From Omnitrophica bacterium GWA2_41_15 (lineage in GTDB: Bacteria > Omnitrophota > Gorgyraeia > Gygaellales > UBA12090), in NCBI GenBank assembly GCA_919902675.1, contig CAKKRH010000012.1:16178-80177 (forward strand): a stretch of DNA of 64,000 bases. Direction: 5' to 3'. Numbering within the stretch: position 1 is the first letter of the stretch; each line of letters begins with the position of its first letter. The notes beneath the pieces were generated by a model that searched no databases, had not been told where the DNA came from, and worked only from the letters and a program-made list of their open reading frames with translations. Positions 129-56,240 of this stretch are shown piece by piece. Position numbers and translations under genes: made by a program.

Positions 129-250
129 AAAAGGTAAAAGTCGAAATTCAAAAGTACAAGTCAAAAGCTAAAATTATTATCGGAAAAATATTTCTTTTAA
201 GAAAATTTTTAGCTCTTAATTTTGACTTTTGAGTTTTGACTTTTGAGTTT
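129..250. repeat. ORF-less imperfect inverted repeat built from ~7-nt tandem units (AAAAGTN word family) in the gyrB-gyrA spacer
   Basis: Left arm 129-175 reads AAAAGGT AAAAGTC GAAATTC AAAAGTA CAAGTC AAAAGCT AAAATT. Right arm 204-250 reads TTTTTAG CTCTTAA TTTTGAC TTTTGAG TTTTGAC TTTTGAG. The arms are largely reverse-complementary around a ~28-nt loop. Confidence 0.7.
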
Positions 251-2725: not shown

Positions 2726-3178
2726 ATGAAAACTATTCATAGAAATTTGCCATTTCTTATTTTTCCTTTCTTGATAGTTACATTTCTCCAAAAGACGCCA
2801 GATAGTTTTGCAGCTTTGAATAATCTTCAGTATTTATATCAAACTTGGTTTCATTCTTATGAAGAACAAGAGAGCCGTACTGAATCCATCGAGACCTATC
2901 GTCCAGAGGGATTGAATGAATTTCCACCCAGTAGGTTCCGTAATAAATATATTTTTAAAGAAGACGGTTCTTGTCAATGGTTAGTCTTGCATCCAGCCGA
3001 TGCGCACTATCTAAAATCAGGAACATGGGAAGTCTCGCGAAACGAGACCCAAGTGATTTTAATCTATGATCAGCACCATAATTTGCAGAAATCATTTAAA
3101 ATTATAGAAATACAAAAGGACTTATTAAGAATAAAGTCAATAGTATTCTTGCCAGAAGAACGTCCTGAAAATAAATAG
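2726..3178 (+). CDS. Hypothetical secreted or membrane-anchored protein
   Basis: 150-aa ORF with a hydrophobic N-terminus (LPFLIFPFLIVTFL). It is visibly more AT-rich than its neighbours, and I recognise no family. Confidence 0.55.
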   Translation: MKTIHRNLPFLIFPFLIVTFLQKTPDSFAALNNLQYLYQTWFHSYEEQESRTESIETYRPEGLNEFPPSRFRNKYIFKEDGSCQWLVLHPADAHYLKSGTWEVSRNETQVILIYDQHHNLQKSFKIIEIQKDLLRIKSIVFLPEERPENK

Positions 3179-5223: not shown

Positions 5224-6546
5224 ATGGAAAAAAGTGAAATAATAGAGAGCCTTTTGGCCTGGAATTTTTGGCAAAAAGGCCTTGATACCGGGATAAGCCG
5301 CGGGCCGTATTTAGAACAAATCCGCCGTTATTTAAAGACTGATGAGGTTGTTGCTCTTTCTGGGATCCGGCGCTGCGGAAAGAGCACCATTCTCCTGCAA
5401 GTCCTGTCCGAGCTGATAAATAACGGCCTGCCGAAGCAAAATACCCTATACATCAATTTTGAGGACCCCAAATTTTTCAATTTTTTAGGGCTGGATTTGT
5501 TGGATAAGATATGGCGGGCTTATCAGGAATATCTGAAGCCGCGGGGCAAGGTATATCTGGTGCTGGATGAGGTGCAGAAGGTAAAGGGATGGGAGCATTG
5601 GGTCAGGGCCAAATACGACCAGAAGGAAAGCGTTAAAATCTTTGTTACCGGCTCAAATGCCGAATTGCTCTCCGCGGAGTTTTCCAGCGTCCTCACCGGC
5701 AGGCATTTAGAGCTGGCGGTGGCGCCTTTAAATTTCAGGGAATACCTGGGGTTTAGAGGGGTGAAGATAGAGAACAATAAGCTTTGGATGGTAGAAAGCC
5801 GAGATCTTCTTTATGGTCACGCCCTGGAGTATCTGCGGATCGGCGGCTTTCCCAAGATAGTCCTCACCGGGGATGAATTACTGCGTAAGGAATTGCTCGA
5901 GCAGTATTTTAACGATATTCTGACCAAGGATATCCGGGACAGGTATAAACTGAAAGAGGCGGGTAAATTAAAGAACCTGGCCTTGTTTTTTGCCGCCAAT
6001 TTCACCCGGCCCTATACCTTCCGTAAGGTCAAGTCCTTGTCCGAAATTCCCTTATCCCTGGATACTGTCCACCGTTTTTCCCATTACTTGGAAAATTCTT
6101 TCATTGTGGATTTTTTAAGCCGCTTTTCCTATTCGCTTAAGAACCGGATGCAGACCGCCCGCAAGGTTTACTTTGTGGATAACGGCCTGCGCAATGCGGT
6201 GGCCTTTAAATTCTCTTCGGATACGGGTAAACTTCTAGAAAACGCCGTTTTTCATCATTTAAAGCAGCAAAAAAAGGAAATTTATTATTACCAGGAAAAG
6301 CAAGAGGTGGATTTTGTTATTAAAGAAGGTTTGAAAATTACCGGACTTATCAATGTGTCAAACAATATTGAGGACAAAGAGACATATTTAAGGGAAACTG
6401 CCTCCTTAAAAGAGGGAATGAGATATTTTAAGCGGAAAGATGCAACGCTAATCACCCTTGAAGGCAAGGCCAAAACCATTAGCGACGAAGGCTTTACTAT
6501 CCTAACAGTTCCTTTTTATCAATGGGCGATAGCAGATTTGCCTTAA
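5224..6546 (+). CDS. AAA+ ATPase with C-terminal DUF4143-type domain (COG1373-like)
   Basis: Walker A GIRRCGKST, Walker B LVLDEVQKV, then VTGSNAELL. Overall layout is typical of AAA_14 + DUF4143 proteins. 440 aa. Confidence 0.8.
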   Translation: MEKSEIIESLLAWNFWQKGLDTGISRGPYLEQIRRYLKTDEVVALSGIRRCGKSTILLQVLSELINNGLPKQNTLYINFEDPKFFNFLGLDLLDKIWRAYQEYLKPRGKVYLVLDEVQKVKGWEHWVRAKYDQKESVKIFVTGSNAELLSAEFSSVLTGRHLELAVAPLNFREYLGFRGVKIENNKLWMVESRDLLYGHALEYLRIGGFPKIVLTGDELLRKELLEQYFNDILTKDIRDRYKLKEAGKLKNLALFFAANFTRPYTFRKVKSLSEIPLSLDTVHRFSHYLENSFIVDFLSRFSYSLKNRMQTARKVYFVDNGLRNAVAFKFSSDTGKLLENAVFHHLKQQKKEIYYYQEKQEVDFVIKEGLKITGLINVSNNIEDKETYLRETASLKEGMRYFKRKDATLITLEGKAKTISDEGFTILTVPFYQWAIADLP

Positions 6547-6556
6547 TACCTCAACT

Positions 6557-6596
6557 CCAACCCCGCAACCTGGCCAAGAGCGTCACGGTAGAATAG
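6557..6596 (+). repeat. Direct repeat copy 2 (orphan glmS 3' end relic)
   Basis: CCAACCCCGCAACCTGGCCAAGAGCGTCACGGTAGAATAG still encodes QPRNLAKSVTVE-stop. It differs from copy 1 only by CGT>CGC, GAG>GAA and TAA>TAG. Confidence 0.9.
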
Positions 6597-6768: not shown

Positions 6769-9700
6769 ATGTGGTTTACTTTAAGTATGCCCCATAGGTG
6801 TAATAAGCTCATTTCCTTCACCTTATGTCTTTTGCTTCTTCTGGAACAAACCGGTTTGGCCCAGACCGTCAGCCTTAACCTGTCTAACTATCTTAGCCAG
6901 GCCCCTAAGCCGGCAGTTTCGGACACCTTCCGCCCGTTACACCTGCGCTATATCTCTTATGACAATTCTAGCCAAAACTTTCAGCTTCTCTTAGACAAGG
7001 GAAGCGCTAAAAATCCGGAAAACAGCGTAGTTAATGATACCACCAAAGAACTGCTCAAGTATTTCTTTATCGGTCTAACCCTGCCTAATGAGAAATTCTG
7101 GGTCAACCTCAGGCCGGACTCGCCCGATGACATCTTGGACCCGGACTTGGAGAAGACCGACATCGGCCGGATATTCCTAGAGGCCGATGTCCAGCTTAAA
7201 AAAGATACTTCCGGGATGACCTCGCCCCAGACCCCGGAAGGCAAGCAATATTGGGATAAGCTGTATAAAAAGGCCGGAGAACTTTTCGGCAGTGAAAACA
7301 TCACCATTCCCACCTTAACCCGGCCTTGGATAGTCCCGGATGAGGTGATCATCCGGGAATCCCCGGAAGGGGCCTATATCTATAAGGCAACGCTGAAGGT
7401 GATGCTGGAGGAGGATTATCTCGAGGGATATCAGCCTTCAGCTGTCAGCTCTCAGCAATCCAAGCCAAACTACCAACTTCTAACTTCTAACTACACCTTC
7501 TCTGACCCCAGGCTTAAAGAGCTCAACGAATATTCCACCCAATTAATTAAAGAAACCATTATCCCCAAGCTCACCCGCCAGATAAATACCTCTAAACGCT
7601 ATGCCCCACTAAGACAAGTTTACTATTCCCTCATCCTGGCCCAATGGTTTAAACAGAAATACGGTCGCCAGTCTGCGGTCTCCGGCCTCCAGTCAGCAGA
7701 ACAAAATAATCCCTATGTCAAACTCATAGATTCCGGCAGCCTAACTTCAAACTTCCAACCTCTAACTTCCCAGAACCCTTATTCTAAAGAGATTTACTTC
7801 CAGCAATATCAGAAGTCCTTCAAAGACGGTGAATACAACCTCCAGGAGCCGGTATATACGCCTATGGGGCAGAGTATCAGGCGGTATATGAGCGGGGGGA
7901 TGCAAATGGATTGCTTTCCTGCGATTAAGGCAGGAAAAATTTCCGGGGCAGGCTCGCCTGTAGATGGCCTGCGGCCAATTATTAAGAAATACTGCCTGTT
8001 GATAGGTTTACCCTTTGCAATGTTTTTATCCGCAGAACCTTCTGTAAATGCAATAACCCTTAATAATAATGGGTTAAGGCTTGAAGCGGTTGTTGAGAGC
8101 GAAGAATCATTGGAAGAGGTGGTAAGGGTGGCATGTAAAAGATTAGGTCTCAATATCGAAGATGGGGACATCAAGGGATATGTAGCTATTCTTCATAATC
8201 AATACCCCGCGGAAGTTAAAAGAGGTGATAGCATAAATATAAAAGAATTGGTTGAAAAAATGATTGTAGAAGATATTTTGAAAAAATGCGAAGTTGTTTC
8301 GAAGCAATTAATAGAAGTCGACAATATAAAGTATAAGGTCTATTTTGTTAAATCAGGCAAGGATATCAAATATTTTTCTTCAACAAAAGGGGCTTCCATC
8401 GGTGACACCATTTTTATTAATTTGGAGATTTTGAAACGGGATGTTAAGTCCGCATTGGAGGATAGGGTAAGGAATTTTATACCTCCTGGGACAACAGAAG
8501 CCGAGTTATTCAATGATACGCTCAAAGCAACGCTTATACATGAATTGATGCATATATTATTATCTAAGTGGTTGAAGGAAGGATTGAAAACATCGCATTT
8601 GGATGAGGTGCTGAGTGATTGGTTTGGAGAAGTTCCATCGGCAAAGAGTTATATGATGAAACAAGAATTAATAGCTCATCTTGCGCAAACCTTAAGCAGC
8701 CTTTATCCGAAGAGTTATTTAGCCAGCTTCATGGCGGGCTTGATTAGCAATGACCATCCGGAATGGTACATCAATATTTTTGCGCTGATTATTGATGAAG
8801 TGCTTAATCCGGGAGCGGATGGCGATCCAGTAAAAAGGTTAGAAAGGTTATCCAATGTTGAAATTATGGGTACGGTTAGGGGGATGTTAGAGAAATACTT
8901 TAGGAAAGATATAATCAAAATACTTTTAGAGCTTCAGAAAGCGGTTGATGGATTACTTTCTGCCGAGAAAAAGCCAAACAATATTGGAAACGGCGATGCG
9001 ATTCATAGCATCCCTACCGAGAAAGCGGAGTCTCCTATAATCCCGGATTCTTCCGGCAGTCCGGCTACGGAAAAAATAAAGGAGTACATTCCTCCTGGCT
9101 CCTCTTCTCCTATGGAGCCCCCTTCCGCCAGCTTGAAGCCTGTGGATGAAGAAATGCAGCGATACATTGATAAGATGGCAGAAGTAATTTTTAATCCGCA
9201 AACAAATAAGTTTGTTGATAGTCTGCCTATTGAAGATTTGTCGCTAGGGATAACTATAGAAAAACTTACCGGAGGAAACAGGGGGAAACCCGTCTATAAA
9301 CTATCCACAGGAAGTGAAAGCGTGGTGGTAAAGTTTTTTCCTCCAAAATTGCCGGACATAGAAAGTGATTTTGATATTGAGCGTATAGGGTTAGAGAGGG
9401 GAAAAGGACTTCCAGGGTTTCAGCAGCTCAGAGCCAGCAAAAAATATCCGGATTTGAATGTAAGTTATATTTTAACTGAGTTTATTCCCGGGAAAAGTTT
9501 TTCCGCCGGGAAGTGGGACTTTTGGGAATATCAGAAAAAACAGAGCGAATATATTAAAAAATTAACCCCGGAAATTGAAATAATGCCCTTAGAGCACTGG
9601 AAGCAATTAGTTTTAATATATTTACGGGCCGATGAAAACGAAATTACGCTGGATGTTAGTCCGGAGAATTTTAAATATCACCCCGAGAGAGGGTTTATGG

Positions 9701-10218
9701 TTTTGGATTATTATCCTAGAGGAGGAGGGCTTTATTTTAGCCATTATTCAGTAGAGCATGATGTTGTGGAAATAGTTACCGGCATAAAGGAGCATATGCT
9801 TGGAACAGATAACAAGCTTGTAAAGTTTATTAAGAAAAAGATATTTGAAGCCCAGAAGGCAGTAAATAAAGAGGTTAAAACCGGCGGTATTGACCTAAGC
9901 CGCATCAATAAGAGCATGCGTATGGAAAGCGTATCTTCGCCCGGATCCGGAGGTTTGGATAGCCCGGTGGATGTAGATTTCGATTTGGATGAGGAGCTCT
10001 CCCAACTGCAGAAATTACTTAACGCCCAGATCATCCCTTCAGCCGACCGGCTGAAGCGCTATGCCTATGCCGCCCGCGCAAGCTCTTTTTCTTCTCCGGA
10101 GTCAGCCGACAGCGCCCTTTCGCTTGTAGCCGAGACCTTCCGCCTGCAGGAGGAGAATGCCCTCCCCGCCTCCCCGGAGCTCAAAGCCCTGGCTGCCTGG
10201 CTGGAGCAGACCGGGTAA
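6769..10218 (+). CDS. Large secreted multidomain protein: conserved-unknown N- and C-terminal parts, central HExxH zincin-like and protein-kinase-like modules
   Basis: 1149-aa ORF with a signal-like segment LISFTLCLLLLLEQTGLAQT. HELMH is encoded at 8539-8553. Kinase-like motifs lie at ~9250-9740 (GGNRGKPVYKL..VVVKF, LTEFIPG, LDVSPENF, VLDYY). The central ~7950-9900 is visibly AT-richer than the flanks. Confidence 0.75.
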   Translation: MWFTLSMPHRCNKLISFTLCLLLLLEQTGLAQTVSLNLSNYLSQAPKPAVSDTFRPLHLRYISYDNSSQNFQLLLDKGSAKNPENSVVNDTTKELLKYFFIGLTLPNEKFWVNLRPDSPDDILDPDLEKTDIGRIFLEADVQLKKDTSGMTSPQTPEGKQYWDKLYKKAGELFGSENITIPTLTRPWIVPDEVIIRESPEGAYIYKATLKVMLEEDYLEGYQPSAVSSQQSKPNYQLLTSNYTFSDPRLKELNEYSTQLIKETIIPKLTRQINTSKRYAPLRQVYYSLILAQWFKQKYGRQSAVSGLQSAEQNNPYVKLIDSGSLTSNFQPLTSQNPYSKEIYFQQYQKSFKDGEYNLQEPVYTPMGQSIRRYMSGGMQMDCFPAIKAGKISGAGSPVDGLRPIIKKYCLLIGLPFAMFLSAEPSVNAITLNNNGLRLEAVVESEESLEEVVRVACKRLGLNIEDGDIKGYVAILHNQYPAEVKRGDSINIKELVEKMIVEDILKKCEVVSKQLIEVDNIKYKVYFVKSGKDIKYFSSTKGASIGDTIFINLEILKRDVKSALEDRVRNFIPPGTTEAELFNDTLKATLIHELMHILLSKWLKEGLKTSHLDEVLSDWFGEVPSAKSYMMKQELIAHLAQTLSSLYPKSYLASFMAGLISNDHPEWYINIFALIIDEVLNPGADGDPVKRLERLSNVEIMGTVRGMLEKYFRKDIIKILLELQKAVDGLLSAEKKPNNIGNGDAIHSIPTEKAESPIIPDSSGSPATEKIKEYIPPGSSSPMEPPSASLKPVDEEMQRYIDKMAEVIFNPQTNKFVDSLPIEDLSLGITIEKLTGGNRGKPVYKLSTGSESVVVKFFPPKLPDIESDFDIERIGLERGKGLPGFQQLRASKKYPDLNVSYILTEFIPGKSFSAGKWDFWEYQKKQSEYIKKLTPEIEIMPLEHWKQLVLIYLRADENEITLDVSPENFKYHPERGFMVLDYYPRGGGLYFSHYSVEHDVVEIVTGIKEHMLGTDNKLVKFIKKKIFEAQKAVNKEVKTGGIDLSRINKSMRMESVSSPGSGGLDSPVDVDFDLDEELSQLQKLLNAQIIPSADRLKRYAYAARASSFSSPESADSALSLVAETFRLQEENALPASPELKALAAWLEQTG
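7470..7497 (+). repeat. In-frame heptamer array (AACTTCT word family) inside the large ORF
   Basis: CTACCAACTTCTAACTTCTAACTACACC. The 17-mer TCTAACTTCTAACTACA (7479-7495) is identical to 17377-17393, which lies in the right arm of the carA-carB cassette. Confidence 0.8.
7741..7770 (+). repeat. Second in-frame array of the same word family
   Basis: CTAACTTCAAACTTCCAACCTCTAACTTCC, translated as LTSNFQPLTS. It has the same orientation as the array at 7470. Confidence 0.75.
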
Positions 10219-13183: not shown

Positions 13184-14472
13184 AGCTATTAATTAAGGGC
13201 GGACGGGTTATCGATCCGGAAAACCGGATGGATGAGGTTTTAGATCTCCTGGTTGAAGGCGATAAGATATCTAAGGCCGAAAAAAACATAAAGTGCCCGG
13301 CGGATAAGATAATAGACGCCGCGGACAAAATCGTGATTCCGGGACTGGTGGATTTACACGCGCATCTGCGAGAGCCCGGCCGGGAGGACAAAGAAACGGT
13401 TTTAAGCGCCACCCGGGCGGCCCTAAAGGGAGGGGTGACGACAATTTTGGCTATGCCCAACACCTCTCCGGCAATGGATTCTCCGGAAAATGTCGCCTTA
13501 TTGCAAGAGATTATCCGAAGAGATGCCCAGACAAATGTCCTTATCTGCGGGGCAATTACCATGGCTCGCCAAGGTAGGGAATTGACCGATATCGCTGGGT
13601 TAAAAAAGGCGGGGGTGCGCGCTGTTTCCGATGACGGCTCAGCCGTGGATAACGAGCAACTGTTTTTCGAGGCCTTAAAAAAGGCAAAAGAAGAAAAGGT
13701 CTTAGTGACCTGTCATTGCGAAGACCGGCTTTTGTCTAATAAAGGGGTAGTTAATCTGGGCTTTACCTCTACCCGCCTGGGTTTAAGGGGGATTTCCCGG
13801 GAATCCGAATATAAAAGGATAGAAAGAGACATCTGCCTGGCTGAAAAGGCCAAGGCCTCCATACATATCGCCCATGTTAGCTGTAAAGAGTCGGTAGAGA
13901 TAATTGCCATAGCCAAAAAAAGAGGGGTTCATCTGACCTGTGAGGCCTGCCCGCACCATTTTTCCCTAAGCGAGGAAGATGTCCTGGATTACGATGCCAA
14001 TAAGAAGATGAATCCTCCTTTGCGGGGAAAAGAGGATGTGGAGGCCATAAGGCAGGGCTTAAAAGACGGGATTATCGACGCTATTGCCTCAGATCACGCC
14101 CCGCATACCGAAAACGAAAAGGACATAGAGTTTGAACGCGCGGAGTTTGGGGTCATCGGTCTGGAGACAATGCTGGCGGTAAGTATCACCGAGTTAGTCA
14201 GCGGCGGCATATTGAATTGGCCGAACTTAGTAAGGAGGATGTCTTTAGGCCCGGCTAAGATTTTAGGCCTGGACAAGGGCACGCTGGGAGCAGGGTGCGT
14301 AGCGGATATAGCGGTGGTTGACCCAGAGAAGGAATGGACGGTTGAGAAAGGTGGGTTTGTTTCCAAATCCCGGAATTCAGCCTTCCTGGGCCGGAAGCTA
14401 AAAGGAGTCGTTGAGTATACGATTCACAATGGTATAATAGCCTATCCCTTTGATAATGGAATTTGTCGCTGA
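13180..14472 (+). CDS. pyrC: Dihydroorotase
   Basis: GLVDLHAHLREPG metal-binding motif, DHAPH motif, 430 aa. Overlaps the pyrB stop. Confidence 0.95.
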
Positions 14473-16982: not shown

Positions 16983-17010
16983 GAAGTTTGAAGTTTGAAG
17001 TTTGAGGTTA
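16983..17010. repeat. Left inverted arm of four-helix-bundle cassette 1 (4 x 7 nt)
   Basis: GAAGTTT GAAGTTT GAAGTTT GAGGTTA, located immediately after the carA stop. Confidence 0.8.
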
Positions 17011-17015
17011 GGAAT

Positions 17016-17381
17016 ATGGAAAAGTTTATTTTTGAAAAATTAGAGGTATATAAAAAAGCCTTAGAATTCATAGGAAAAGTAATTGATACGGCAAAAACCT
17101 TGCCCACAGATATAAAATACACTTTGGGAAAGGAGTTGATAAAAACAAGCGTGTCTATTGCCAATAATTTAGCTGAGGGAAGCGGCAGAAGAAGCAGAAA
17201 GGAAAAAAGACAATTTTATGATATTGCTCAAGGCTCCATATTTGAATGTATTCCTATGCTTAGTGTATTAAAAAATAAAACATTTATTACTCAAGAAGAA
17301 TATTCAGAGTTATATGAGTATTGTTTTGTAATGGCTAAAATGGTTTCCGGCTTAATCCGCCACCAAACTACTAACCTCTAA
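17016..17381 (+). CDS. Four-helix-bundle protein (23S rRNA intervening-sequence protein / Avd family)
   Basis: FEKLEVYKKALEF...SVSIANNLAEGSGRRSRKEKRQFYDIAQGSIFEC matches the family signature (NIAEG..R.S.KE...F..IA.GS..E). The ORF is AT-rich. The ATG at 17016 is preferred over the TTG at 16995. Confidence 0.85.
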   Translation: MEKFIFEKLEVYKKALEFIGKVIDTAKTLPTDIKYTLGKELIKTSVSIANNLAEGSGRRSRKEKRQFYDIAQGSIFECIPMLSVLKNKTFITQEEYSELYEYCFVMAKMVSGLIRHQTTNL

Positions 17382-17395
17382 CTTCTAACTACAGC
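17364..17395. repeat. Right inverted arm of cassette 1
   Basis: AACTACT AACCTCT AACTTCT AACTACA. The reverse complement GTTAGAAGTTAGAGGTTAG matches the left-arm GTTTGAAGTTTGAGGTTAG at 17 of 19 positions. The arm overlaps the ORF stop. Confidence 0.8.
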
Positions 17396-17400
17396 TTTTT

Positions 17401-20400
17401 ATGCCAAAAAGAACCGACATCAAAAAAATCCTGATTATTGGCTCTGGTCCGATCATTATCGGCCAGGCCTGCGAGTTTGATTATTCCGGGACCCAGGCCT
17501 GTAAGGCTTTACGGGAAGAAGGTTTTAAAGTAATTTTGGTCAATTCTAACCCGGCAACCATTATGACCGACCCGGAAACCGCGGACAGGACCTATATTGA
17601 GCCGATAACCGTGGAGATGTTAGAGAAGATTATTCAGAAAGAAAAACCCGACGCTCTGCTTCCTACTTTAGGCGGACAAACCGGATTAAATGTAAGTATC
17701 AAGCTGGCGGAGGCCGGAATCCTGGATAAGCATAAGGTTCAGATGATTGGCGCTGACCGTAAGGCTATCAAGAAGGCCGAGGACCGCAAGCTCTTTAAAC
17801 AGGCGATGCAAAAAATCGGCCTGGATTTGCCTAAGAGCGGATTGGCCCGCGACATAAAAGAAGCCAAAAAGATTGCCGCGAAAATCGGCTTTCCGCTGAT
17901 TATCCGTCCTTCCTTTACCTTAGGCGGCAGCGGCGCCGGCACAGTTTATACCGCGCAGGAATTTGAGCTTATGGCCCGGAGGGGTCTGGAATCCAGCATG
18001 ATTTCCGAGATCCTGATTGAAGAATCCATCATCGGCTGGAAGGAATATGAGCTGGAGGTAATGCGGGATAGAAAAGACAATGTGGTGATCATCTGTTCTA
18101 TTGAGAACTTTGACCCGATGGGGGTGCATACCGGAGATTCTATCACCGTGGCCCCGGCCCAGACTCTGAGCGACCGGGAATACCAGAAGATGCGCGACGC
18201 GGCAATTGCCTGTATCCGGGAAATCGGAGTGGAAACCGGTGGTTCAAATATCCAGTTCGCGGTCAATCCGGATAATGGCCGGATGGTGGTGATTGAGATG
18301 AATCCCAGGGTTTCCCGTTCCTCAGCCCTGGCCTCCAAGGCCACCGGTTTTCCCATTGCCAAGATTGCCGCCAAGCTGGCGGTAGGTTATACCCTGGATG
18401 AAATCCCCAATGATATCACCAAAAATACCCCGGCCTCTTTTGAGCCGACTATAGACTATTGCGTGGTCAAGATTCCCCGTTTTGCCTTTGAAAAATTCCC
18501 TTCGGCAGACTCTACCCTGACTATTCAGATGAAGTCCGTGGGCGAGGTAATGGCTATCGGCCGGACTTTTAAAGAGGCCCTGCAAAAGGGAATCCGCGGC
18601 CTGGAGATTAAGCGCGACGGCTTAAGCGGGATAAAATATAAGGATAAAACCGAACTGGAAGAACAGTTAAAAAGGCCGAACGCGGAAAGATTATTTTATC
18701 TCTATGAAGCGCTTAAAGAAAATTATTCCTTAGACAGGCTTTATGAGCTAACCAAGATAGACCGCTGGTTTCTGCAAAACTTAAAAGAGCTTGTAGAATT
18801 TGAGAGTCAGCTTTCAGCAAAAGAAAACCCTCCGCAAGAAATAATTTTAAAAGCCAAACAGCTGGGTTTTAGCGATAAACAAATAGCCAGGATTTTAAAT
18901 AAAGACGAAGATAGCGTCCGGGCCTTGCGCAAGGCCCAAGGTGTTGAGCCGGTGTATAAGCTGGTGGATACCTGCTCCGCGGAGTTTGAGGCCTGGACTC
19001 CGTATTATTATTCTACTTATGAAACGCCCTTCGCTAAACCCGAAACCCGAAACCCGAAACCCGAAACAAATCCTAATGACCAAAACCAAAATTTCCAAAT
19101 TACCGAAGACGAAACCAGAAAGACCGAGAAGAAAAAGATTATGATTTTAGGCGGAGGGCCGAACCGGATCGGCCAGGGGATAGAGTTTGACTATTGCTGT
19201 GTGCACGCCTCTTTTGCCCTCAAAGAAATGGGTTATGAGACCATAATGGTTAACTCTAACCCCGAGACTGTCTCCACTGATTACGATACCTCGGATAAAT
19301 TATACTTTGAACCCTTGACCAAAGAAGATGTACTAAATATCATCGATAAGGAAAAGCCGGAAGGGGTAATTGTGCAGTTGGGCGGTCAGACCCCTTTGAA
19401 TCTGGCGGTGCCGCTTAAAGAGGCCGGGGTGAGGATTTTAGGCACTTCGGCCGATGCCATTGACCGGGCTGAGGACCGCAAGCGTTTTTCCCAGCTGGTG
19501 GAAAAATTAGGCCTGGTTCAGCCGGCTAACGGCAGCGCGGTTACCTTTGAGCAGGCTAAGACAATCGCTCGAAAAATCGGCTATCCGGTTTTGGTCAGGC
19601 CTTCGTATGTTCTTGGTGGCCGGGCCATGGAGATCATCTATGACGATCAGGCCCTGGAGTATTATATTCAGCGCGCGGTCTGGGCTTCTCCGGAGCGTCC
19701 GATTCTGGTGGATAAATTTATTGAGGATGCCATTGAAGTGGATGTGGATATGGTTGGCGACGGGGAAACCTTTTGTATTGGAGCAATTATGGAACATATC
19801 GAAGAGGCCGGGGTGCATTCAGGCGACGCGGCCATGGTTTTGCCGGCGCATACCTTAACCCCTGAGATTTTAGATAAGGTCCGTGATTATACATATCGCC
19901 TGGCCAAAGAGCTGAATATTATCGGTTTAATGAATGTGCAATACGCGGTCAAAAATAGCACCGTCTATATCTTAGAGGTTAACCCCCGGGCCTCACGCAC
20001 CGCGCCTTTTGTTTCTAAGGCTATCGGCGTGCCCCTTGCCAAGTTAGCGGCCAAGGTAATGGCAGGTGAGACTCTTAAAGAACTGGGCTTTACCCGGGAA
20101 ATTACCCCAAAACACATTTCAGTCAAGGAATCCGTCCTGCCTTTTGTGAAATTTCCCGGAGTGGACATAACCTTAGGCCCGGAGATGAAATCAACCGGCG
20201 AGGTAATGGGCATTGATACCGATTTTGGCCGGGCTTACGCCAAGAGCCAGCTGGCCGCTTATCAGAATTTGCCCGCGGCCAAAGGCACGGTTTTCATCAG
20301 CGTCAAAGACAAGGATAAAAGAACACAGATGGCCAAGACCGCCAAGAAGCTAAAGGACTTGAAATTTGAAATTATCTCAACTCTGGGCACGGCTAAGTTC

Positions 20401-20724
20401 CTGGAGGAAAACGGAATTATCGCCCGGACCATCCAGAGGGTCAGCGACGGAAAACCCAATGTCCTGGATTTGATACAAGAGGGCAAAATCAAACTGATAA
20501 TTAACACCGTATCGGGAAAAATCCCCCGTCAGGATGAGCTGAAAATACGCACTAGCGCCATCGCCTTAGGCATCCCGGTGATTACTACCTTGCCCGGGGC
20601 AGAGGCCTGCTCCCGGGGAATCGAGGCCTTGATAAAACATAAATTAGGAGTCAAGCCGATACAGGCCTATCATAAAAAGTTAAAAGTTAAAAGTAAAAAG
20701 GCAAAAAGACAAAGCAAGGTGTAA
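17401..20724 (+). CDS. carB: Carbamoyl-phosphate synthase large subunit
   Basis: Duplicated ATP-grasp halves, each beginning I(L)[17 protein letters not shown], plus an MGS-like C-terminus. 1107 aa. It has an expanded inter-half linker and a Lys-rich tail. Confidence 0.97.
19036..19067 (+). repeat. In-frame heptamer array (AAACCCG x4) in the carB inter-domain linker
   Basis: AAACCCG AAACCCG AAACCCG AAACCCG AAAC, translated [12 protein letters not shown] degenerate CCAAAAY-type stretch follows to about 19105. Confidence 0.85.
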
Positions 20725-20793: not shown

Positions 20794-21594
20794 ATGCCGG
20801 AACTGCCGGAAGTGGAGACTATAAAGCGGGATTTGGAGAAGGTGATTGTCGGTAAAAAGATTACCGATGTCTGCGTACACCATCCGGCAGTCATCCGCCA
20901 GCCTTCGCCGGATAAGTTTAAAAAGGGAATAGAGGGCGCGCTTATCAAAAATATCCTGCGCAAAGCCAAGGTCTTGATTTTGGAACTATCTAACGGCAAG
21001 TCTTTGACCGCGCATTTAAAGATGACCGGGCAATTGGTTTATCCGGGAAGCGGAGTAAAGAGCCGGGTAAGCTTTCATCTCTCAAATGGTAAGAATTTAG
21101 ACTTTAATGACCAGAGGCTTTTTGGCGAATTGCGCCTTTTGGACGACTGGCGCTCCTTGAAATTTATCCAGGGCTTAGGCCCTGAGCCGTTTGATATGAG
21201 CGAAACGCGGTTTAAGGAAATACTGGCTAAGAAAAAGACCAAAATCAAACCCCTTTTAATGGATCAGTCTTTTATTTCCGGAATCGGCAACATCTACGCC
21301 GCCGAGGGCCTGTTTCGAGGCCGGATCCATCCCGCAAGGCCGGCTAACAGCCTTTCGGATAAAGAGAAGGAGCTTCTTTTTAAGGAAATTAAAGCCACCC
21401 TGAAAGAGGCCATTGAGGCCGGCGGTTCTTCGGTGGACGATTATGTGCGGCTTTCCGGCGAACGAGGCGGCTACGCGAAATACCATAAGGTTTACGGCCG
21501 CCAGGGTAAGCCTTGTCTAGCCTGCAAAACCCCGATTAAAAGAATAGCCTTAGGTGGTCGAGGCACCTTCTTTTGCCCCAAATGCCAGAAATGA
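20794..21594 (+). CDS. mutM: Formamidopyrimidine-DNA glycosylase
   Basis: MPELPEVE N-terminus (catalytic Pro2/Glu3) and the C-terminal zinc finger CLACKTPI...FFCPKCQ. 266 aa. Confidence 0.93.
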   Translation: MPELPEVETIKRDLEKVIVGKKITDVCVHHPAVIRQPSPDKFKKGIEGALIKNILRKAKVLILELSNGKSLTAHLKMTGQLVYPGSGVKSRVSFHLSNGKNLDFNDQRLFGELRLLDDWRSLKFIQGLGPEPFDMSETRFKEILAKKKTKIKPLLMDQSFISGIGNIYAAEGLFRGRIHPARPANSLSDKEKELLFKEIKATLKEAIEAGGSSVDDYVRLSGERGGYAKYHKVYGRQGKPCLACKTPIKRIALGGRGTFFCPKCQK

Positions 21595-22457
21595 AACCTT
21601 TTCAAATAACCGCTAAAATCATCTCAAATAAAAATATAAAAAATAATTACTTTGAAATCGTTTTGCTTGCTCCACAGATAGCCCGGAATGCCCTGCCGGG
21701 GCAGTTTGTGAATATCAAGACCAGCGAGGGATTTGAGCCGTTATTACGCAGGCCGTTGAGCATACATAGGATTGGTCGCCAGTCTCGAGTCGCCAGTCTC
21801 GAGTCAAAAGAAGGTAAAGAGATTATAATGCTTTATGAGGTCCTGGGCAAAGGCACGCAAATACTTTCTCAGAGAATGCAGGGTGAGTTTTTGGATGTGA
21901 TTGGGCCATTAGGTAACGGTTTTAATTGCTATCCGCTATCCGCTATCCGCTATCCGCCGATTTTGATTGCCGGGGGAATGGGCACCGCCCCCTTAGTTTT
22001 TCTCGCGGAAAGATTAGTCCACAGTCCACAGTCCATAGTCCATAGAAAGCCGTTGGTCTTGATTGGTGCCAGGTCAGAAAGCCATATTCTTTGCGAAAAA
22101 GAGTTTAAAGAATTGGGGTGCGAGGTAAAAATTGCCACCGACGACGGCTCCCGCGGATTTAAGGGTTATGTCAGCAGTTTATTAACTGAAATCCTGTCAA
22201 CCGTCAACTGTCAACCGTCAACTATATATGCTTGCGGGCCAAAGCTTTTGCTTAAGGAAATCAGCCGGATATCCCTTGAGCAGAATATCCCGGCCCAGCT
22301 GTCCTTGGAATCGCATATGGCCTGCGGAATCGGGGCCTGTATGGGATGCGTAATAAAAGTAAAAAGTAAAAAGGCAAAAGGCAAAATTGACGACGAGTAT
22401 AAACGGGTTTGCAAAGAAGGGCCGGTGTTTGAGGCTCGGGAGATAGCTTGGGAATGA
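21591..22457 (+). CDS. pyrK: Dihydroorotate dehydrogenase electron-transfer subunit
   Basis: PGQFVNI, LLRRPLSI, GPLGNGF, and the C-terminal 2Fe-2S motif MACGIGACMGC...VCKEGPVF. The ATG at 21591 overlaps the mutM stop. It contains five tandem arrays. Confidence 0.9.
   Translation: MKPFQITAKIISNKNIKNNYFEIVLLAPQIARNALPGQFVNIKTSEGFEPLLRRPLSIHRIGRQSRVASLESKEGKEIIMLYEVLGKGTQILSQRMQGEFLDVIGPLGNGFNCYPLSAIRYPPILIAGGMGTAPLVFLAERLVHSPQSIVHRKPLVLIGARSESHILCEKEFKELGCEVKIATDDGSRGFKGYVSSLLTEILSTVNCQPSTIYACGPKLLLKEISRISLEQNIPAQLSLESHMACGIGACMGCVIKVKSKKAKGKIDDEYKRVCKEGPVFEAREIAWE
21775..21805 (+). repeat. In-frame tandem array in pyrK (14 nt x2, an ABAB heptamer pattern)
   Basis: GTCGCCAGTCTCGA GTCGCCAGTCTCGA GTC, translated RQSRVASLES, immediately after the conserved RRPLSI motif. 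Confidence 0.9.
21928..21955 (+). repeat. In-frame heptamer array in pyrK (GCTATCC x4)
   Basis: GCTATCC GCTATCC GCTATCC GCTATCC, translated CYPLSAIRYP, between the GNGF and GGMGTAP motifs. Confidence 0.9.
22016..22045 (+). repeat. In-frame heptamer array in pyrK (AGTCCAC/AGTCCAT x4)
   Basis: AGTCCAC AGTCCAC AGTCCAT AGTCCAT AG, translated HSPQSIVH. It shares the 13-mer ACAGTCCACAGTC with the pyrD array. Confidence 0.9.
22196..22223 (+). repeat. In-frame heptamer array in pyrK (GTCAACC/GTCAACT, ABAB)
   Basis: GTCAACC GTCAACT GTCAACC GTCAACT, translated STVNCQPST, just before YACGP. Confidence 0.9.
22355..22386 (+). repeat. In-frame heptamer array in pyrK (AAAAGTA x2, AAAAGGC x2)
   Basis: AAAAGTA AAAAGTA AAAAGGC AAAAGGC AAAA, translated [10 protein letters not shown], inside the Fe-S cluster region. 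It is near-identical to the 21-mer at 20686 and 56210. Confidence 0.9.
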
Positions 22458-23407
22458 GGGAAGGCCTGGTGGTAAATATAGGAAGACTGCGCTTAAAAAA
22501 TCCGGTGATGGCGGCCTCCGGCACCTTTGGCTACGCCGAGGAGTTTAAGCATTTTATAGATTTAAAGAAGTTAGGGGCAATAGTTACTAAAACTATTACC
22601 TTGAAGCCGCGCGTGGGAAATCCCCCTCCGCGCACCTGCGAAACTCCGGCCGGATTGCTTAATTCTATCGGTTTGGAGAATCCCGGGATAGACAGGTTTA
22701 TCGATGAGAAAATACCTTTTATCAAGAGCCTGGGCGTGCCTTTAATTGTCAGTATCGCCTCAGAAGGAGGCGTTGAGGAATTTGTCAGCCTGGCTAAGCG
22801 TTTAGATAGGGTAAAAGAAGTCTCTGCTATTGAACTGAATATTTCCTGTCCCAATATTAAAAACAGTCCACAGTCTACAGTCTACAGTCTACAGAAAAAC
22901 AATGGACAATTGATTTCACAAGACGCAAAGGCGACATACGAAGTGGTTAAGATGGCGCGTAAGGCTACCCGGAAAACCTTGATCACCAAGCTGTCTCCGA
23001 ATGTTACCGATATTACGGAAATTGCTCAGGCCGCCCAGGATGGGGGAAGCGATTGCCTGGCCTTGATAAACACCCTGATGGGAATGAGTGTTGATGTGCG
23101 CACCCGCAAGCCCAAGATAGCCATGGTGACTGCCGGCCTAAGCGGCCCGGCTGTCCGACCGGTGGCCTTACGGATGGTCTGGGAGGTTTACAAAAAAGTC
23201 AAAATCCCCATAATCGGGATGGGCGGAATAACCGACACTGAGAGCGTCCTGGAATTTTTTATAGCTGGAGCAAGCGCTATTGCCGTGGGCACGGCTAATT
23301 TTATCAATCCCCGGACTATGATTGAAATCATTTCCGGCTTAGAGAAATATTTAGCCCGGAATAGAATCAAAGACATAAAAGAACTGATAGGAAGCCTGAA
23401 GATATGA
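22454..23407 (+). CDS. pyrD: Dihydroorotate dehydrogenase (class 1B) catalytic subunit
   Basis: NPVMAASGTFGY, GLENPG, ELNISCPN and GGI motifs. The ATG at 22454 overlaps the pyrK TGA (ATGA). Confidence 0.94.
   Translation: MREGLVVNIGRLRLKNPVMAASGTFGYAEEFKHFIDLKKLGAIVTKTITLKPRVGNPPPRTCETPAGLLNSIGLENPGIDRFIDEKIPFIKSLGVPLIVSIASEGGVEEFVSLAKRLDRVKEVSAIELNISCPNIKNSPQSTVYSLQKNNGQLISQDAKATYEVVKMARKATRKTLITKLSPNVTDITEIAQAAQDGGSDCLALINTLMGMSVDVRTRKPKIAMVTAGLSGPAVRPVALRMVWEVYKKVKIPIIGMGGITDTESVLEFFIAGASAIAVGTANFINPRTMIEIISGLEKYLARNRIKDIKELIGSLKI
22864..22894 (+). repeat. In-frame heptamer array in pyrD (CAGTCCA/CAGTCTA x4)
   Basis: CAGTCCA CAGTCTA CAGTCTA CAGTCTA CAG, translated SPQSTVYSLQ, directly after the ELNISCPN active-site motif. 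Confidence 0.9.
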
Positions 23408-25014: not shown

Positions 25015-25043
25015 AAAGCAGAGTAAAGAGGTAAGAGTAAAGA
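25015..25043. repeat. Left inverted arm of four-helix-bundle cassette 2
   Basis: AAAGCAGAGTAAAGAGGTAAGAGTAAAGA starts 3 nt after tRNA-Val and runs into the ATG. Confidence 0.85.
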
Positions 25044-25408
25044 TGAGTGCGGATGAGCCTCGGTATAGAAGGTTGCTGATATGGAAAAAAGCGCATAATA
25101 ACGCGATTATCTTGATAACGTTAATAAAAAACTGCAACTCGAAATACGGCCGCGTTATAGATCAATGTCTTGGCAGTGTTACCTCAATAGGCGCGAATAT
25201 CGCGGAAGGTAATGAATCCGCGACACATAAACAAAAAGAAAGCTATTTCCAGATTTCCCTGAATTCGGCATACGAATTGGATAACTGGCTGCAAATATTA
25301 AAAGACGGAGAAATAATTACCGACAAAGAAAAAATAGCAGTGATAGAAAAAGAAAACATTGAAGTAATCAAAATTTTGTGTACAATAATTAAATCCCTTA
25401 GGTTTTGA
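25043..25408 (+). CDS. Four-helix-bundle protein (23S rRNA intervening-sequence protein / Avd family)
   Basis: 121 aa. LLIWKKAHN...SIGANIAEGNES..HKQKESYFQISLNSAYELDNWL fits the family signature. The ORF is AT-rich. Confidence 0.8.
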   Translation: MSADEPRYRRLLIWKKAHNNAIILITLIKNCNSKYGRVIDQCLGSVTSIGANIAEGNESATHKQKESYFQISLNSAYELDNWLQILKDGEIITDKEKIAVIEKENIEVIKILCTIIKSLRF

Positions 25409-25412
25409 TTTT

Positions 25413-25448
25413 TCTTTACTCTTACCTCTTTACTCTTAATTCTGCTTT
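25413..25448. repeat. Right inverted arm of cassette 2
   Basis: TCTTTACTCTTACCTCTTTACTCT (25413-25436) is the perfect reverse complement of 24 nt of the left arm. After a 5-nt insertion, CTGCTTT completes the match. The arm ends 3 nt before tRNA-Asp. Confidence 0.9.
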
Positions 25449-29214: not shown

Positions 29215-31356
29215 ATGGATACCAAGAACAATCAGGTAGAAGCATATTTATCTCAGCTTCAACAGGAAAAGTTTAATGAACAGTTAAATAGCGCTTATGG
29301 GATTTCTAAGGATGCCGCCAACCCTAAGATAGCCCGGATAGGTTTTGACGGAAAAGAAAATCGCTTAGGCTGGACTCTGGCCAACCTGAATTGGATTCTG
29401 GGGAATTACCGGCTTGTGGAGAGCCTGCTCGAGGATGCCCAAAAGATCCGCGATAATTTCAAATACGCGGTTTTCTGCGGTATGGGGGGGTCGGGATTAA
29501 CCGTGCAGTTAGTCAAGGATACCTTTGGTGAGAGCGGGGTAACTATATACAGCTTAAGGACTACCGATCCTAAGGCGATCAAAGATATCTTGGATGAGAT
29601 AACCGCGATAGAAGGCTCTTTGGAGAAAGCGCTGGAGAAAATATTAGTGATTGCTATTAGCAAATCCGGGACCACCATTGAGACCGTTTCCCATAAAAAA
29701 TATTTTGAAGAGCTTTATAATAAATCCGGAATAGATATTAAAAAGCATCTCTGGGTCCTTACCGATAAAGGCTCACCAATGGATACCGGGGATTACAAGC
29801 AGAGAGAAATTCAGCTTAACGGCCGGGGAGATATCGGGGGCAGGTTTACCGCTCCGGCCACCAATATCTTTTTATTGCCTTTGGCCATAGCCGCCGCGCA
29901 GAAAGTGCGGACAGTTTTAGAGACGGCTAAATCCATGAATGATTTCGCTGATATTAAGCAAGACACATTCTTAAAGTTAGGGGCTTATTTATATCATATG
30001 GCCGCAGATGAGGGAAAAGATAAGCTTACTATGCTTATGCCGGATGAATTAAAAGACATCCCGATGTGGGCGGAGCAGTTGGTTGAGGAGTCTTTGGGTA
30101 AAGACGGTAAAGGCATAAGCCTTTTTTACGCGGAGAAGCTCTCGCCTAAGGAATTAAGGCCTGCCCGGGAGAATGACCGGGTATTTTTCCGGATAAATAT
30201 AGGCGGCCGGAAAACCAGCCCTGAGCTTTGGAATTATCTGACGGCAAATAAATATCCGGTGTTTGAGATAGACATAAAAGATCTGGACTCCATCGGCGGG
30301 ATTATGCTGGGATTACAAAGGGCGGTTGCCGCGATCGGCTATCTCTGGGATATTTGTTTTGTGGACCAGCCGGCAGTAGAAGGCTATAAGAAGGCGACTA
30401 AAGAGGTAATGAAAATAGGAGGGGAAGCCAAGGTTCCCGCGCAGTGGCGTTTTGCCGCCTTTAAAGGGTTGAAGTTATATTATAGCCCTTTACTTGAGGC
30501 AGGAGCCTTTAGCGACAGTCAATTGCGCGAAGAAGTAAAAAAGATGAAGGGAAATCCGGATAGCGCGCCTGATGCCTACGCGGCAATAATCAGCCTGCTT
30601 ATTCAAAAGGCAAAATTAGAGGCGATTGAGCTTACCTCTTACGGCAAGATGTCTCCGGCTTTTAAAAATATTCTTGATCAGGCCAGATATAGCCTCTTTA
30701 CCCGGGGCTTAAAACTTCCGGCAAAATTAGGGGAGGGCCCGGATAAGAACCATTCTTACCATCAGAATATTGAGGCTGGAAAAGATATGTGGTTTTCCAC
30801 TTATTTCCTGGCCGATAAAATTGAACAGCCCCAAGGTTTGGAATTTGACCCCAATCTGCTCAAGGCCCAGGCCATCGGAACAGTCCAGTCGCTCGTCAAC
30901 AATAAGCGCAAGGTGGCGCTGATTACCTTTGCCGGCACAGCTCAAGACGCCCAGGTTGAGCTAAAAGAATTCTGGGATAAGCTTTTAGGAATTCTTATTG
31001 CCGCGAAAATAATAAAAAGCCCCGAGGCAAGCCAGATGGTTACTTATGATGAATTCAGAAAATCAGAGATAAGGGTAGCGCGGATACAAGAGGTTAACCC
31101 GCATCCCAATGCCGACAGGCTTTATGTGCTCAAGATTGATTTAGGCGGTTCTCCGCGTCAGATCGTGGCCGGAATCCGCGCTTCCTATAAGCCTGAGGAA
31201 TTAGTGGGGAAACAGATCGCGGTTATAATTAATTTAGAGCCGGCAGTAATCCGGGGGGTGGAAAGCCAGGGAATGCTGTTGGCCGCTTCCGATGACACCG
31301 GAATCGCAATCTTAACTCCGCAAAGGGAAGTCAAGCCGGGGAGCGTGGTAAAATAA
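29215..31356 (+). CDS. Glucose-6-phosphate isomerase-like protein fused to a C-terminal tRNA-binding (Trbp111/CsaA-type OB) domain
   Basis: PGI motifs FCGMGGSGL, AISKSGTTIET and GGRFT. The last ~105 aa (VARIQEVNPHPNADRLYVLKIDLGG..RQIVAGI...GVESQGMLLAA) match the tRNA_bind domain. Confidence 0.75.
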   Translation: MDTKNNQVEAYLSQLQQEKFNEQLNSAYGISKDAANPKIARIGFDGKENRLGWTLANLNWILGNYRLVESLLEDAQKIRDNFKYAVFCGMGGSGLTVQLVKDTFGESGVTIYSLRTTDPKAIKDILDEITAIEGSLEKALEKILVIAISKSGTTIETVSHKKYFEELYNKSGIDIKKHLWVLTDKGSPMDTGDYKQREIQLNGRGDIGGRFTAPATNIFLLPLAIAAAQKVRTVLETAKSMNDFADIKQDTFLKLGAYLYHMAADEGKDKLTMLMPDELKDIPMWAEQLVEESLGKDGKGISLFYAEKLSPKELRPARENDRVFFRINIGGRKTSPELWNYLTANKYPVFEIDIKDLDSIGGIMLGLQRAVAAIGYLWDICFVDQPAVEGYKKATKEVMKIGGEAKVPAQWRFAAFKGLKLYYSPLLEAGAFSDSQLREEVKKMKGNPDSAPDAYAAIISLLIQKAKLEAIELTSYGKMSPAFKNILDQARYSLFTRGLKLPAKLGEGPDKNHSYHQNIEAGKDMWFSTYFLADKIEQPQGLEFDPNLLKAQAIGTVQSLVNNKRKVALITFAGTAQDAQVELKEFWDKLLGILIAAKIIKSPEASQMVTYDEFRKSEIRVARIQEVNPHPNADRLYVLKIDLGGSPRQIVAGIRASYKPEELVGKQIAVIINLEPAVIRGVESQGMLLAASDDTGIAILTPQREVKPGSVVK

Positions 31357-49446: not shown

Positions 49447-49733
49447 TCGAGCGTAGAAAGATTAAAATAGGCGCTAAATATATCGAGGCATTTTTGATAA
49501 ATTTAGAGAGTAAAAACCTTATTCTCTTAAGAGGATCCCGTGGCTACGTGATGTGCGGCTATTTGAATATGAAGGCAGCAGAGAGATTTAAGGATGTGGC
49601 AATAAAAATCACCGGAATATCCGCTATCAAAGAGGCATTAAAAACTTCAGTTCATTCCTGCACCAGCCCCGCAAGAAAATTAGGCATCTATAAAGGCCAG
49701 CCGATAAAGGAAGTTTTGAAGATCATCGCCTAA
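49443..49733 (+). CDS. DUF1805 (YunC-like) protein
   Basis: 96 aa. LILLRGSRGYVMCGYLNM..AE.F.D.A..ITG matches my recollection of YunC-family proteins. ATGA overlap upstream. Confidence 0.6.
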   Translation: MIERRKIKIGAKYIEAFLINLESKNLILLRGSRGYVMCGYLNMKAAERFKDVAIKITGISAIKEALKTSVHSCTSPARKLGIYKGQPIKEVLKIIA

Positions 49734-56203: not shown

Positions 56204-56240
56204 AATAAAGTTAAAAGTAAAAAGGCAAAATTAAAAAAGG
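56204..56240. repeat. Heptamer array (AAAAGTN family) in the divergent region upstream of era
   Basis: AAAGTTA AAAGTAA AAAGGCA AAATTAA AAAAGG. The 21-mer GTTAAAAGTAAAAAGGCAAAA (56210-56230) is identical to 20686-20706 and differs by 1 nt from 22359-22379. Confidence 0.85.

Follow-up and report, generated by a model that had tools for sequence, protein, structure and literature searches.

Heptamer arrays in pyrK and pyrD of an Omnitrophota bacterium: probable fast-changing microsatellites confined to 21-base steps by the reading frame

We analysed a 64,000-nucleotide stretch of the genome of Omnitrophica bacterium GWA2_41_15 (assembly GCA_919902675.1, contig CAKKRH010000012.1; the whole stretch is called the window below), in which six short tandem arrays of 7-nucleotide (nt) units lie inside pyrK and pyrD, the genes for the electron-transfer and catalytic subunits of dihydroorotate dehydrogenase. 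Five of the arrays are in pyrK and one is in pyrD, all of them in frame and at the coordinates given by the first-pass annotation of this DNA, and both open reading frames (ORFs) stay open. Comparison with solved structures, with related genomes and with near-identical strains suggests a model in which these arrays are probably fast-changing microsatellites whose reading frame permits 21-base steps only.

Array loops of PyrK and PyrD

The window arrays (S1 to S5 in pyrK; Table 1) were located by direct reading, by Tandem Repeats Finder (TRF) and by a separate period scan. Among periods 4-21, only 7 and 14 rose above dinucleotide shuffles (n = 20) in the window, and since 11 and 8 arrays were counted at these two periods compared with 0.0 and 0.15 in the shuffles, the arrays exceed chance. 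The pyrK ORF starts at 21573 or 21594 and ends at 22457, and its product matches, at 100% identity, a protein from a Candidatus Omnitrophota metagenome-assembled genome (MAG) in NCBI.

Alignment with PDB entries revealed five sites of extra residues in PyrK relative to Lactococcus PyrK, all of which match arrays. In an AlphaFold2 model of PyrK (mean predicted local distance difference test score (pLDDT) 80, predicted template modelling score (pTM) 0.82), all five array segments (Table 1) are predicted to be coil or of low confidence and to alternate with conserved strands and helices, S1 coinciding with a modelled coil of pLDDT below 50 (residues 63-72). Similarly, the pyrD array falls within a 12-residue insert, opposite a gap in 1EP1_A, just past the NISCPN(I/V)K loop of the catalytic cysteine. 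The coding arrays are rich in A and C on the sense strand, and the peptides that they encode are rich in K, S, R, P, T and Q. Overall, the arrays are located in predicted surface loops of PyrK and PyrD, and their earlier interpretation as lineage-specific additions between conserved elements is borne out by their absence from solved PyrK and PyrD structures and from outgroups.

For the comparison with relatives we used the DNA around pyrK from 80 species-representative genomes (loci carry the prefix L; L066-L080 are outgroups); loop-length tables between anchors cover S4 and S5 only. PyrK homologues are 255-318 residues long, with variation almost confined to the five array loops and the N terminus. 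Most of the closer Omnitrophota loci have period-7 arrays, and period 7, together with 14 and 21, is the sole enriched period there; the outgroups have nearly none. Across the coding DNA of 69 loci, 89 arrays had period 7 and 7 had period 8, compared with 0-3 for each of the periods 4, 5, 6, 9, 10, 11 and 12.

The words within a given loop change from species to species. At S1, L082 carries another ABAB array (AGCTATC AGCCGCC, twice), whereas S2 holds the window word, as CTATCCG, in L081, L003, L005, L007 and L038, and ATCGTAC, CGAAAGA or others elsewhere. Nearly all Omnitrophota relatives have an array of about four units at S4, often of equal loop length between species, built from CTATCGA, CTGTCGA, CTTTCAG, CTCACAA, ACGAAGG and other words. 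At S5, L081 and L082 differ by 7 residues and L081 carries a perfect (AAAAGGC)x4, and in the inter-domain linker of carB the word is AAATCCC in L003 and L022, AAATCCG in L015 and AAACCCG in the window, every unit of the array having changed in concert. The corresponding PyrD segment is 31-32 residues long in outgroups and many relatives and 37-38, 40, 43-44 or 48-53 residues in others. A strict 7-residue quantisation of loop length between species was considered and holds approximately only, S5 measuring 8, 16-17, 19 or 24 residues and the PyrD segment being likewise irregular; the array loops have layered histories. The many insertion events postulated in the first-pass annotation fit less well with this distribution: since the five PyrK loops and the PyrD loop are array sites in relatives too, we prefer a small number of old sites, with fast turnover and concerted change, over many independent hits. 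L082 is a close syntenic relative in which the other proteins of the neighbourhood have 72-96% identity to their window counterparts. PyrK, at 67-71%, has the lowest value, array turnover making it the fastest-evolving protein there.

A density survey of 68 Omnitrophota loci (1.05 Mb around pyrK) gave 1.39 arrays per kb in pyrK, 0.20 in pyrD, 0.20 in intergenic DNA, 0.105 in carB, 0.097 in carA, 0.08 in pyrF and 0.005 in other coding DNA, with none in the 119 kb of pyrB, pyrC, pyrR and fpg. In the pyrK-centred sample, 98 of 114 arrays were coding.

Table 1. Positions of the arrays, their host genes and array-bearing regions in the 64-kb window
Feature	Position	Strand	Composition or context	Basis or location in product
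pyrK, dihydroorotate dehydrogenase B electron-transfer subunit	21594..22457	+	Host of five arrays	Open ORF; PDB 5KSW_B/1EP3_B, E~1e-36
S1	21775..21805	+	GTCGCCA GTCTCGA x2 + GTC (ABAB) = GTCGCCAGTCTCGA x2.2	PyrK residues ~61-71
S2	21928..21957	+	(GCTATCC) x4.3, 3' of GPLGNGF	PyrK residues ~112-122
S3	22016..22045	+	AGTCCAC x2, AGTCCAT x2, AG	PyrK residues ~142-151, past helix after GGMG
S4	22194..22223	+	(CTGTCAA CCGTCAA) x2.1, ends CT	PyrK residues ~201-210, N-terminal to IYACGP
S5	22355..22386	+	AAAAGTA x2, AAAAGGC x2, AAAA	PyrK residues ~255-265, Cys3-Cys4 interval of 2Fe-2S motif
pyrD, class 1B dihydroorotate dehydrogenase catalytic subunit	22448..23407	+	Host of one array	Open ORF; PDB 1EP1_A, E=1.8e-79
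PyrD array	22863..22894	+	ACAGTCC, then ACAGTCT x3.6 (x3 + ACAG)	Immediately past ELNISCPNIK
carB inter-domain linker array	19032..19067	+	(AAACCCG) x4.6	TRF and period scan
carB C-terminal tail array	20673..20713	+	AAAAGTT/AAAAGTA/AAAAGGC, words as in S5	TRF and period scan
Dispersed 24-nt array copy	56207..56230	+	AAAGTTAAAAGTAAAAAGGCAAAA	5' region of gene starting 56249
Left heptamer-array arm	25020..25043	+	Inverted repeat around PF05635 gene 25043-25408	Right arm 25413-25436, 24 nt 100% complementary
(GAAGTTT)x3 arm	16983..17005	+	5' of PF05635 gene 16995-17381, carA-carB interval	Imperfect complementary arm 17371-17390
Heptamer array 5' of gyrA	216-250			Period scan
Heptamer arrays within 1149-residue ORF	ORF 6769-10218			Period scan

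Length changes between near-identical strains and the reading frame

Between L083 and L084 (99.07% identity over 3535 nt), the sole insertion or deletion (indel) is (TGGCAAA)x3 at S1, where the array counts 1.7 versus 4.7 units. Similarly, L085 and L086 (99.78% identity over 12137 nt, the entire operon) differ by a sole indel of 21 nt, in S4, and length differences of exactly 7 residues were found at S1 and S4 within protein clusters of 90% identity. Concerted change within an array was also observed: in S4 of L083 and L084 there are four single-nucleotide polymorphisms (SNPs) at exact 7-nt spacing, all four units having changed at the same unit position. Unit variants of an array at the pyrF N terminus distinguish L085 from L086.

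A change that breaks the frame was encountered in L088, whose sequence equals that of L084 over 962 nt apart from the loss of one 8-nt unit from (AAAGTCAC)x4, and in which pyrK is split into two ORFs; this allele was assembled from a groundwater sample. A frameshift in S4 is common to two further, independent sequences; these two minor alleles were the only frameshifted ones found. With a frameshifted allele assembled from a natural sample, the essentiality of pyrK, taken for granted in the first-pass annotation, is an assumption only. None of the 80 representative loci has a frameshifted pyrK, 77 being full length, two cut by contig ends and one (residues 13-287) just under the cut-off; the 217-residue sequence P0136, a candidate frameshifted allele, was rejected, as a contig end cuts it. 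As a side observation, L084 bears 8-nt-unit arrays in two loops, AAAGTCAC x4 in S3 (~3063-3094) and GGTCACCA in S5 (~3405-3441).

The unit numbers follow the same rule. In coding DNA, the lengths of exact lag-7 self-match runs show two modes, 9-13 and 22-27, and no run reaches 28, so that perfect coding arrays represent exactly three added units. Counted by full units, the 89 coding arrays comprise nine of two, 24 of three, 50 of four and six of five units, and six intergenic arrays have 2, 2, 3, 3, 3 and 5, four full units being found in 0 of 6. Among the seven period-8 arrays, four score 3.x units and two have four full units, a tendency to be expected under the frame rule whenever the unit length is not a multiple of three.

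Taken together, these results support the frame filter proposed in the first-pass annotation: the only indels between near-identical strains measure 21 nt, perfect coding arrays add exactly three units, and a frameshifted allele exists. Polymorphism between such strains further indicates that the process is currently active, and the comparison of strains for unit number, which the annotation had suggested, yielded a gain of three units (21 nt) and a loss of one unit (8 nt) in sequences 99-100% identical elsewhere.

Array copies, cassettes and further arrays

The first-pass annotation placed the arrays in pyrK and pyrD, where they are indeed present, although they are not limited to these genes: carB has two, and more flank two small genes (Table 1). 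The pyrimidine operon reads pyrR-like phosphoribosyltransferase gene, pyrB, pyrC, a gene of unknown function, carA, a PF05635 gene, carB, fpg, pyrK, pyrD, pyrF and a MazG-like gene. Nor does each array use a different heptamer, as had been stated. S3 and the pyrD array have ACAGTCCACAGTC in common, and with it the word ACAGTCC, with 13-18 identical nt. Two identical copies of the 24-nt array AAAGTTAAAAGTAAAAAGGCAAAA lie 35 kb apart, at 20683-20706 in the carB tail and at 56207-56230, and 18 nt of this array, identical at 20689-20706 in the carB C-terminal array and at 56213-56230 in the intergenic copy, make up S5 of pyrK. This indicates copying of arrays between sites, and the same was seen in relatives, where one word occurs in several loops or genes of the same genome (three times in L007, twice in L038 and as two pairs in L018). 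An identical word was shared by 4.5% of array pairs within a locus versus 1.2% between loci (3.7-fold).

Besides the heptamers, a dispersed palindrome of 20-21 nt, CCTGCCTG(N)CCGGCAGGCAGG, encoding PACRQAG/PAGRQ, was found in PyrK loops, in the carB tail and in intergenic DNA of many Omnitrophota loci (L006 at 10398 and 10599, L010 at 4196, L045 at 763 and 18095, L089 at 1273 and 1301, and others); it is not present in the 64-kb window. Two filled/empty pairs are available. The 21-nt palindrome CCTGCCTCGCCGGCAGGCAGG lies inside the S4 array of L085 (10656-10676) and is absent from L086, at a site that adjoins a cluster of 11 SNPs within ~75 nt, whereas the heptamer pair at S1 of L083 and L084 is built from local sequence.

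PF05635 proteins are 23S-rRNA-intervening-sequence-protein-like, four-helix-bundle proteins, for which we know of no mobilising activity. All four PF05635 genes in the Omnitrophota data, together with one in L143 (a metagenome contig of GC 60%), have inverted heptamer-periodic arms on both sides (window 16983-17390 and 25020-25436; L081 13631-13975; L046 20278-20640; L143 2402-2937). The second window gene, 25043-25408, sits between tRNA-Val and tRNA-Asp. In L082 the carA-carB cassette is missing, and the tRNA site holds a degraded ORF with arms that have other words yet are still complementary. Inverted arrays also occur within PyrK: S3 of L005 (10386-10456) and of L016 (6880-6959) consists of two heptamer arrays in inverted orientation, TAGCGTA... 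followed by CTATACG/CTATCCG..., forming a hairpin-like 26-residue insert with the polarity of the metagenome pairs described below.

To follow one word beyond the pyr genes, metagenome contigs were scanned for (CTATCCG)x3.4, which gave at least 120 matching stretches, of which 80 loci were analysed. Among these 80 listed loci, the arrays were intergenic in 40 cases, at ORF edges in 17 and coding in 35. All 35 coding arrays were in sense orientation, a sign of selection on strand; the reverse complement would put TAG in frame. Many of these contigs have a GC content of 0.6-0.7, and six of the 80 loci have inverted CTATCCG pairs 17-86 nt apart. On low-GC contigs, in-frame arrays were found in, among others, HypF (twice), KdtA, LpxK, KdsB, PheT, tetratricopeptide repeat (TPR) proteins and glycosyltransferases, which rules out a phenomenon specific to the pyrimidine operon: array enrichment is not exclusive to pyr genes, and the very high pyrK density remains. 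CTATCCG, with these matches and 10 arrays in the pyrK sample, was also considered as a special master word. In a viral-contig control, however, two arbitrary heptamers gave 5 and 16 matches versus 5 and 7 for the observed words, and since arbitrary heptamers form arrays about equally often there, no word is claimed to be special.

Several observations concern other genes of the window. The 1149-residue ORF (6769-10218) is without Pfam match and contains weaker heptamer arrays, chiefly at 7438-7492, 7664-7674 and 7743-7769; some of its words are seen elsewhere (CTAACTTCTAACTACA at 17377, GTCGCCAGTCT in S1 of pyrK), and its CAGCNNT-type units are similar to S4 units of relatives. Stretches of 1.6-1.7 units of array words (CCATAGTCCATA, AAAAAGGCAAAAG, CAAAAGGCAAAA and TATCCGCTATC) lie in other genes, at 3597-3608, 13678-13690, 30604-30615 and 49618-49628; with ~10 clusters versus ~3.8 expected, they are modestly over chance and may be either array seeds or arrays that have collapsed. 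Directly repeated 27-nt copies of the glmS 3' end (5111-5137 and 6567-6593) flank a single AAA_14/DUF4143 ATPase gene (5224-6546) immediately 3' of glmS, suggesting site-specific insertion at the glmS end. A replication origin or terminus near pyrK was ruled out, the GC skew being positive throughout the window.

Origin of the arrays and relation to known repeats

The explanation that we favour, and hold to be rather probable, is heptamer-biased slippage or template switching, with the reading frame and structural tolerance as filters and with some copying of arrays from site to site. According to this model, an Omnitrophota clade would have a repeat-generating bias, almost exclusively towards 7-nt units with few of 8 nt, and slipped-strand or template-switch events in replication or repair would amplify short local seeds, each consisting of one unit and the first 2-5 nt of its successor. 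In genes only net changes divisible by three would survive, so that the visible states would be ~1.x and ~4.x units (+21 nt, 7 codons), and the positions affected would be those that tolerate seven extra polar residues, i.e. surface loops, linkers and termini. Established arrays would turn over by collapse, re-expansion and unit-to-unit conversion, which would keep the units alike within an array as the word drifts between species, and arrays would now and then be copied to other sites. What we infer here is the molecular event (slippage or template switching), the cause of the 7-nt preference, and the tolerance and persistence behind the five pyrK arrays. Passages of PMC4692102 (citing Mrazek 2007) describe heptamer simple sequence repeats (SSRs) as over-represented in many bacteria, with polymerase slippage as the proposed source.

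A number of points weigh against this explanation. A one-step transition from 1.x to 4.x units is not expected of simple slippage, since stepwise growth passes through two frameshifted states, and slippage by 14 nt cannot produce in-frame ABAB arrays of two 14-nt units (S1 and S4), for which length-neutral conversion is needed. Imported sequence, and not only local amplification, is suggested by words that recur at non-homologous sites and by the 21-nt palindrome, itself not a repeat, inside an array. Array density in pyrK is 7 times the intergenic and ~260 times the other coding value, for which tolerance alone is no obvious explanation, and arrays are lacking in fpg, although it lies between carB and pyrK, as in pyrB, pyrC and pyrR. 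The model also does not account for the preference for 7 over the frame-neutral 6 and 9, nor for the choice of pyrK.

A rival reading is a dedicated small-element mechanism in place of slippage. Heptamer arrays, frequently in inverted pairs, would then be minute mobile or templated units, as would the 20-21-nt palindromes; resembling the small dispersed repeats of Nostoc and possibly tied to the PF05635 cassettes, they would be pasted at permissive sites, with only 21-nt products surviving in genes. Such a mechanism, which we regard as unlikely, draws on single words at several sites per genome (L007, L038 and L018; in the window S3/pyrD and S5/carB/56207), on a palindrome present or absent in S4 of 99.8% identical strains with near-identical ones in other loops, carB and intergenic DNA, and on inverted arrangements at the PF05635 genes, in S3 of L005 and L016 and in the six metagenome loci. 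However, a Pfam scan of 20 of the ~52 window genes turned up no mobilising enzyme, the words vary by site and, at a single site such as S4 or the carB linker, shift little by little from one species to the next, in line with local evolution, the 1.x versus 4.x polymorphism at S1 derives from local sequence, and arbitrary heptamers array about as often in viral contigs. More doubtful still is a sequence-copying process that would write 21-nt modules, either three heptamer units or a 21-nt palindrome, into permissive loops and also build the PF05635 hairpin arms. If real, it would be a natural mechanism of in-frame loop insertion and diversification in Omnitrophota, and perhaps in further phyla, that strongly prefers certain regions or genes, PyrK in the first place; a dedicated copying mechanism would then amount to a new kind of small mobile or templating system.

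A coding unit that is not a multiple of three is also the classic design of a contingency (phase-variation) switch, and the arrays are concentrated in genes of one pathway, so unit gain and loss might act as an on-off control of de novo pyrimidine synthesis in a nanobacterium that depends on a host, with second-order selection for switchability. The one-unit deletion that splits pyrK in the groundwater sample and the S4 frameshift common to two independent sequences speak for such a switch. We nevertheless judge this improbable. With four units per array compared with 3-53 in neuO, arrays at five or six positions of a gene rather than in a single 5' tract, and no frameshift among 80 representative loci compared with 66% of neuO genomes OFF (PMC13001214), it fails the available tests; moreover, arrays exist in C-terminal tails, where a frameshift would leave the gene on, and similar ones occur in HypF, KdtA, LpxK, KdsB and PheT. 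Nothing was found in support of the first-pass suggestion that coding targets are exploited. Selection at the protein level, whereby 7-residue periodic, polar, disordered loops would give PyrK and PyrD a lineage-specific property with the DNA period as a by-product, seems very improbable: the five loops are filled throughout the closest relatives, S4 is constant in length (16 residues between anchors) in many species and the peptides share a polar composition, but one loop can hold unrelated peptides in close relatives (S2, NCYPLSAIRYPP in the window versus NIDRRPLTIDYRP in P0006), loops are present or absent between 99% identical strains, and nucleotide identity within arrays extends to synonymous positions, for which selection on the protein gives no explanation. 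An assembly or binning artefact is hardly conceivable. The window is a MAG contig, but the same architecture recurs in dozens of independent assemblies from various assemblers and samples, the arrays (30 nt) are shorter than the k-mers used, the frame is kept in all of them, and PyrK has an exact match in NCBI.

Under slippage or template switching with a frame filter, the arrays provide a natural example of mutational bias acting with frame constraint, in which a unit that is not a codon multiple changes loops in seven-residue quanta, and a comparative system for why bacterial repeat instability so often favours 7-nt units. Inserts of this kind must be taken into account when Omnitrophota proteins are annotated by homology or placed in phylogenies.

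The arrays show the generic features of bacterial heptamer SSRs, namely tandem 7-nt units, lineage-wide occurrence and strain polymorphism. The short tandemly repeated repetitive (STRR) sequences of heterocystous cyanobacteria, with words such as CCCCAGT, TTGGTCA and CAACAGT, were named as an analogy in the first-pass annotation, and aptly so: STRR and related heptamer SSRs have in common with the pyrK and pyrD arrays a 7-nt unit, few tandem copies, several words per genome recurring at many sites and strong lineage specificity, and the Omnitrophota arrays are also found in intergenic DNA and as inverted pairs. As the words differ and the host belongs to Omnitrophota, they are not cyanobacterial STRR proper. 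STRR were reportedly described by Mazel in 1990 as mostly intergenic; the pyrK and pyrD arrays lie in frame in conserved housekeeping genes, in another phylum, with a copy number of ~4. Small dispersed repeats (SDR) were reportedly described in Nostoc punctiforme by Elhai and colleagues in 2008 as 21-27-nt inserts, in part hairpin-forming, that occur in otherwise conserved genes and are associated with heptamer repeats. Compared by description only, the 21-nt palindrome within a PyrK heptamer array resembles these inserts, whereas the six window arrays are tandem and not palindromic, and the window is without the palindrome. Literature searches with the array sequence and on Omnitrophota with tandem repeats returned nothing relevant; we did not find described a systematic in-frame four-unit heptamer form in conserved Omnitrophota housekeeping genes, five hypervariable loops in one enzyme, or a 21-nt-only polymorphism between near-identical strains.

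Heptamer repeats of STRR and of the Xanthomonas/Nostoc GGGAATC type are mostly intergenic, according to the passages of PMC4692102 that treat them. A coding counterpart is neuO of the Escherichia coli K1 prophage CUS-3, with a heptanucleotide variable number tandem repeat (VNTR), 5'-AAGACTC-3', of 3-53 units, the gene being ON only if the heptad number is divisible by three (PMC13001214). The likeness lies in a coding heptamer tandem repeat that yields a full-length protein only under a frame rule on unit number, three units making seven residues (PMC13001214). The neuO repeat is a single long 5' tract with a high switching rate and is mostly OFF, in contrast to the four units at many sites per gene, without frameshift in 80 representative genomes, in Omnitrophota. 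Repetitive extragenic palindromic (REP) sequences and REPINs are similarly short, dispersed, numerous and hairpin-forming when paired, but REPINs lie outside genes, are not built of tandem heptamers and require REP-associated tyrosine transposases (RAYTs) (PMC3116915), none of which was seen among the 20 of ~52 window genes scanned against Pfam. Overall, the arrays are a coding-region form of a known repeat class, the STRR-like heptamer SSRs of bacteria.

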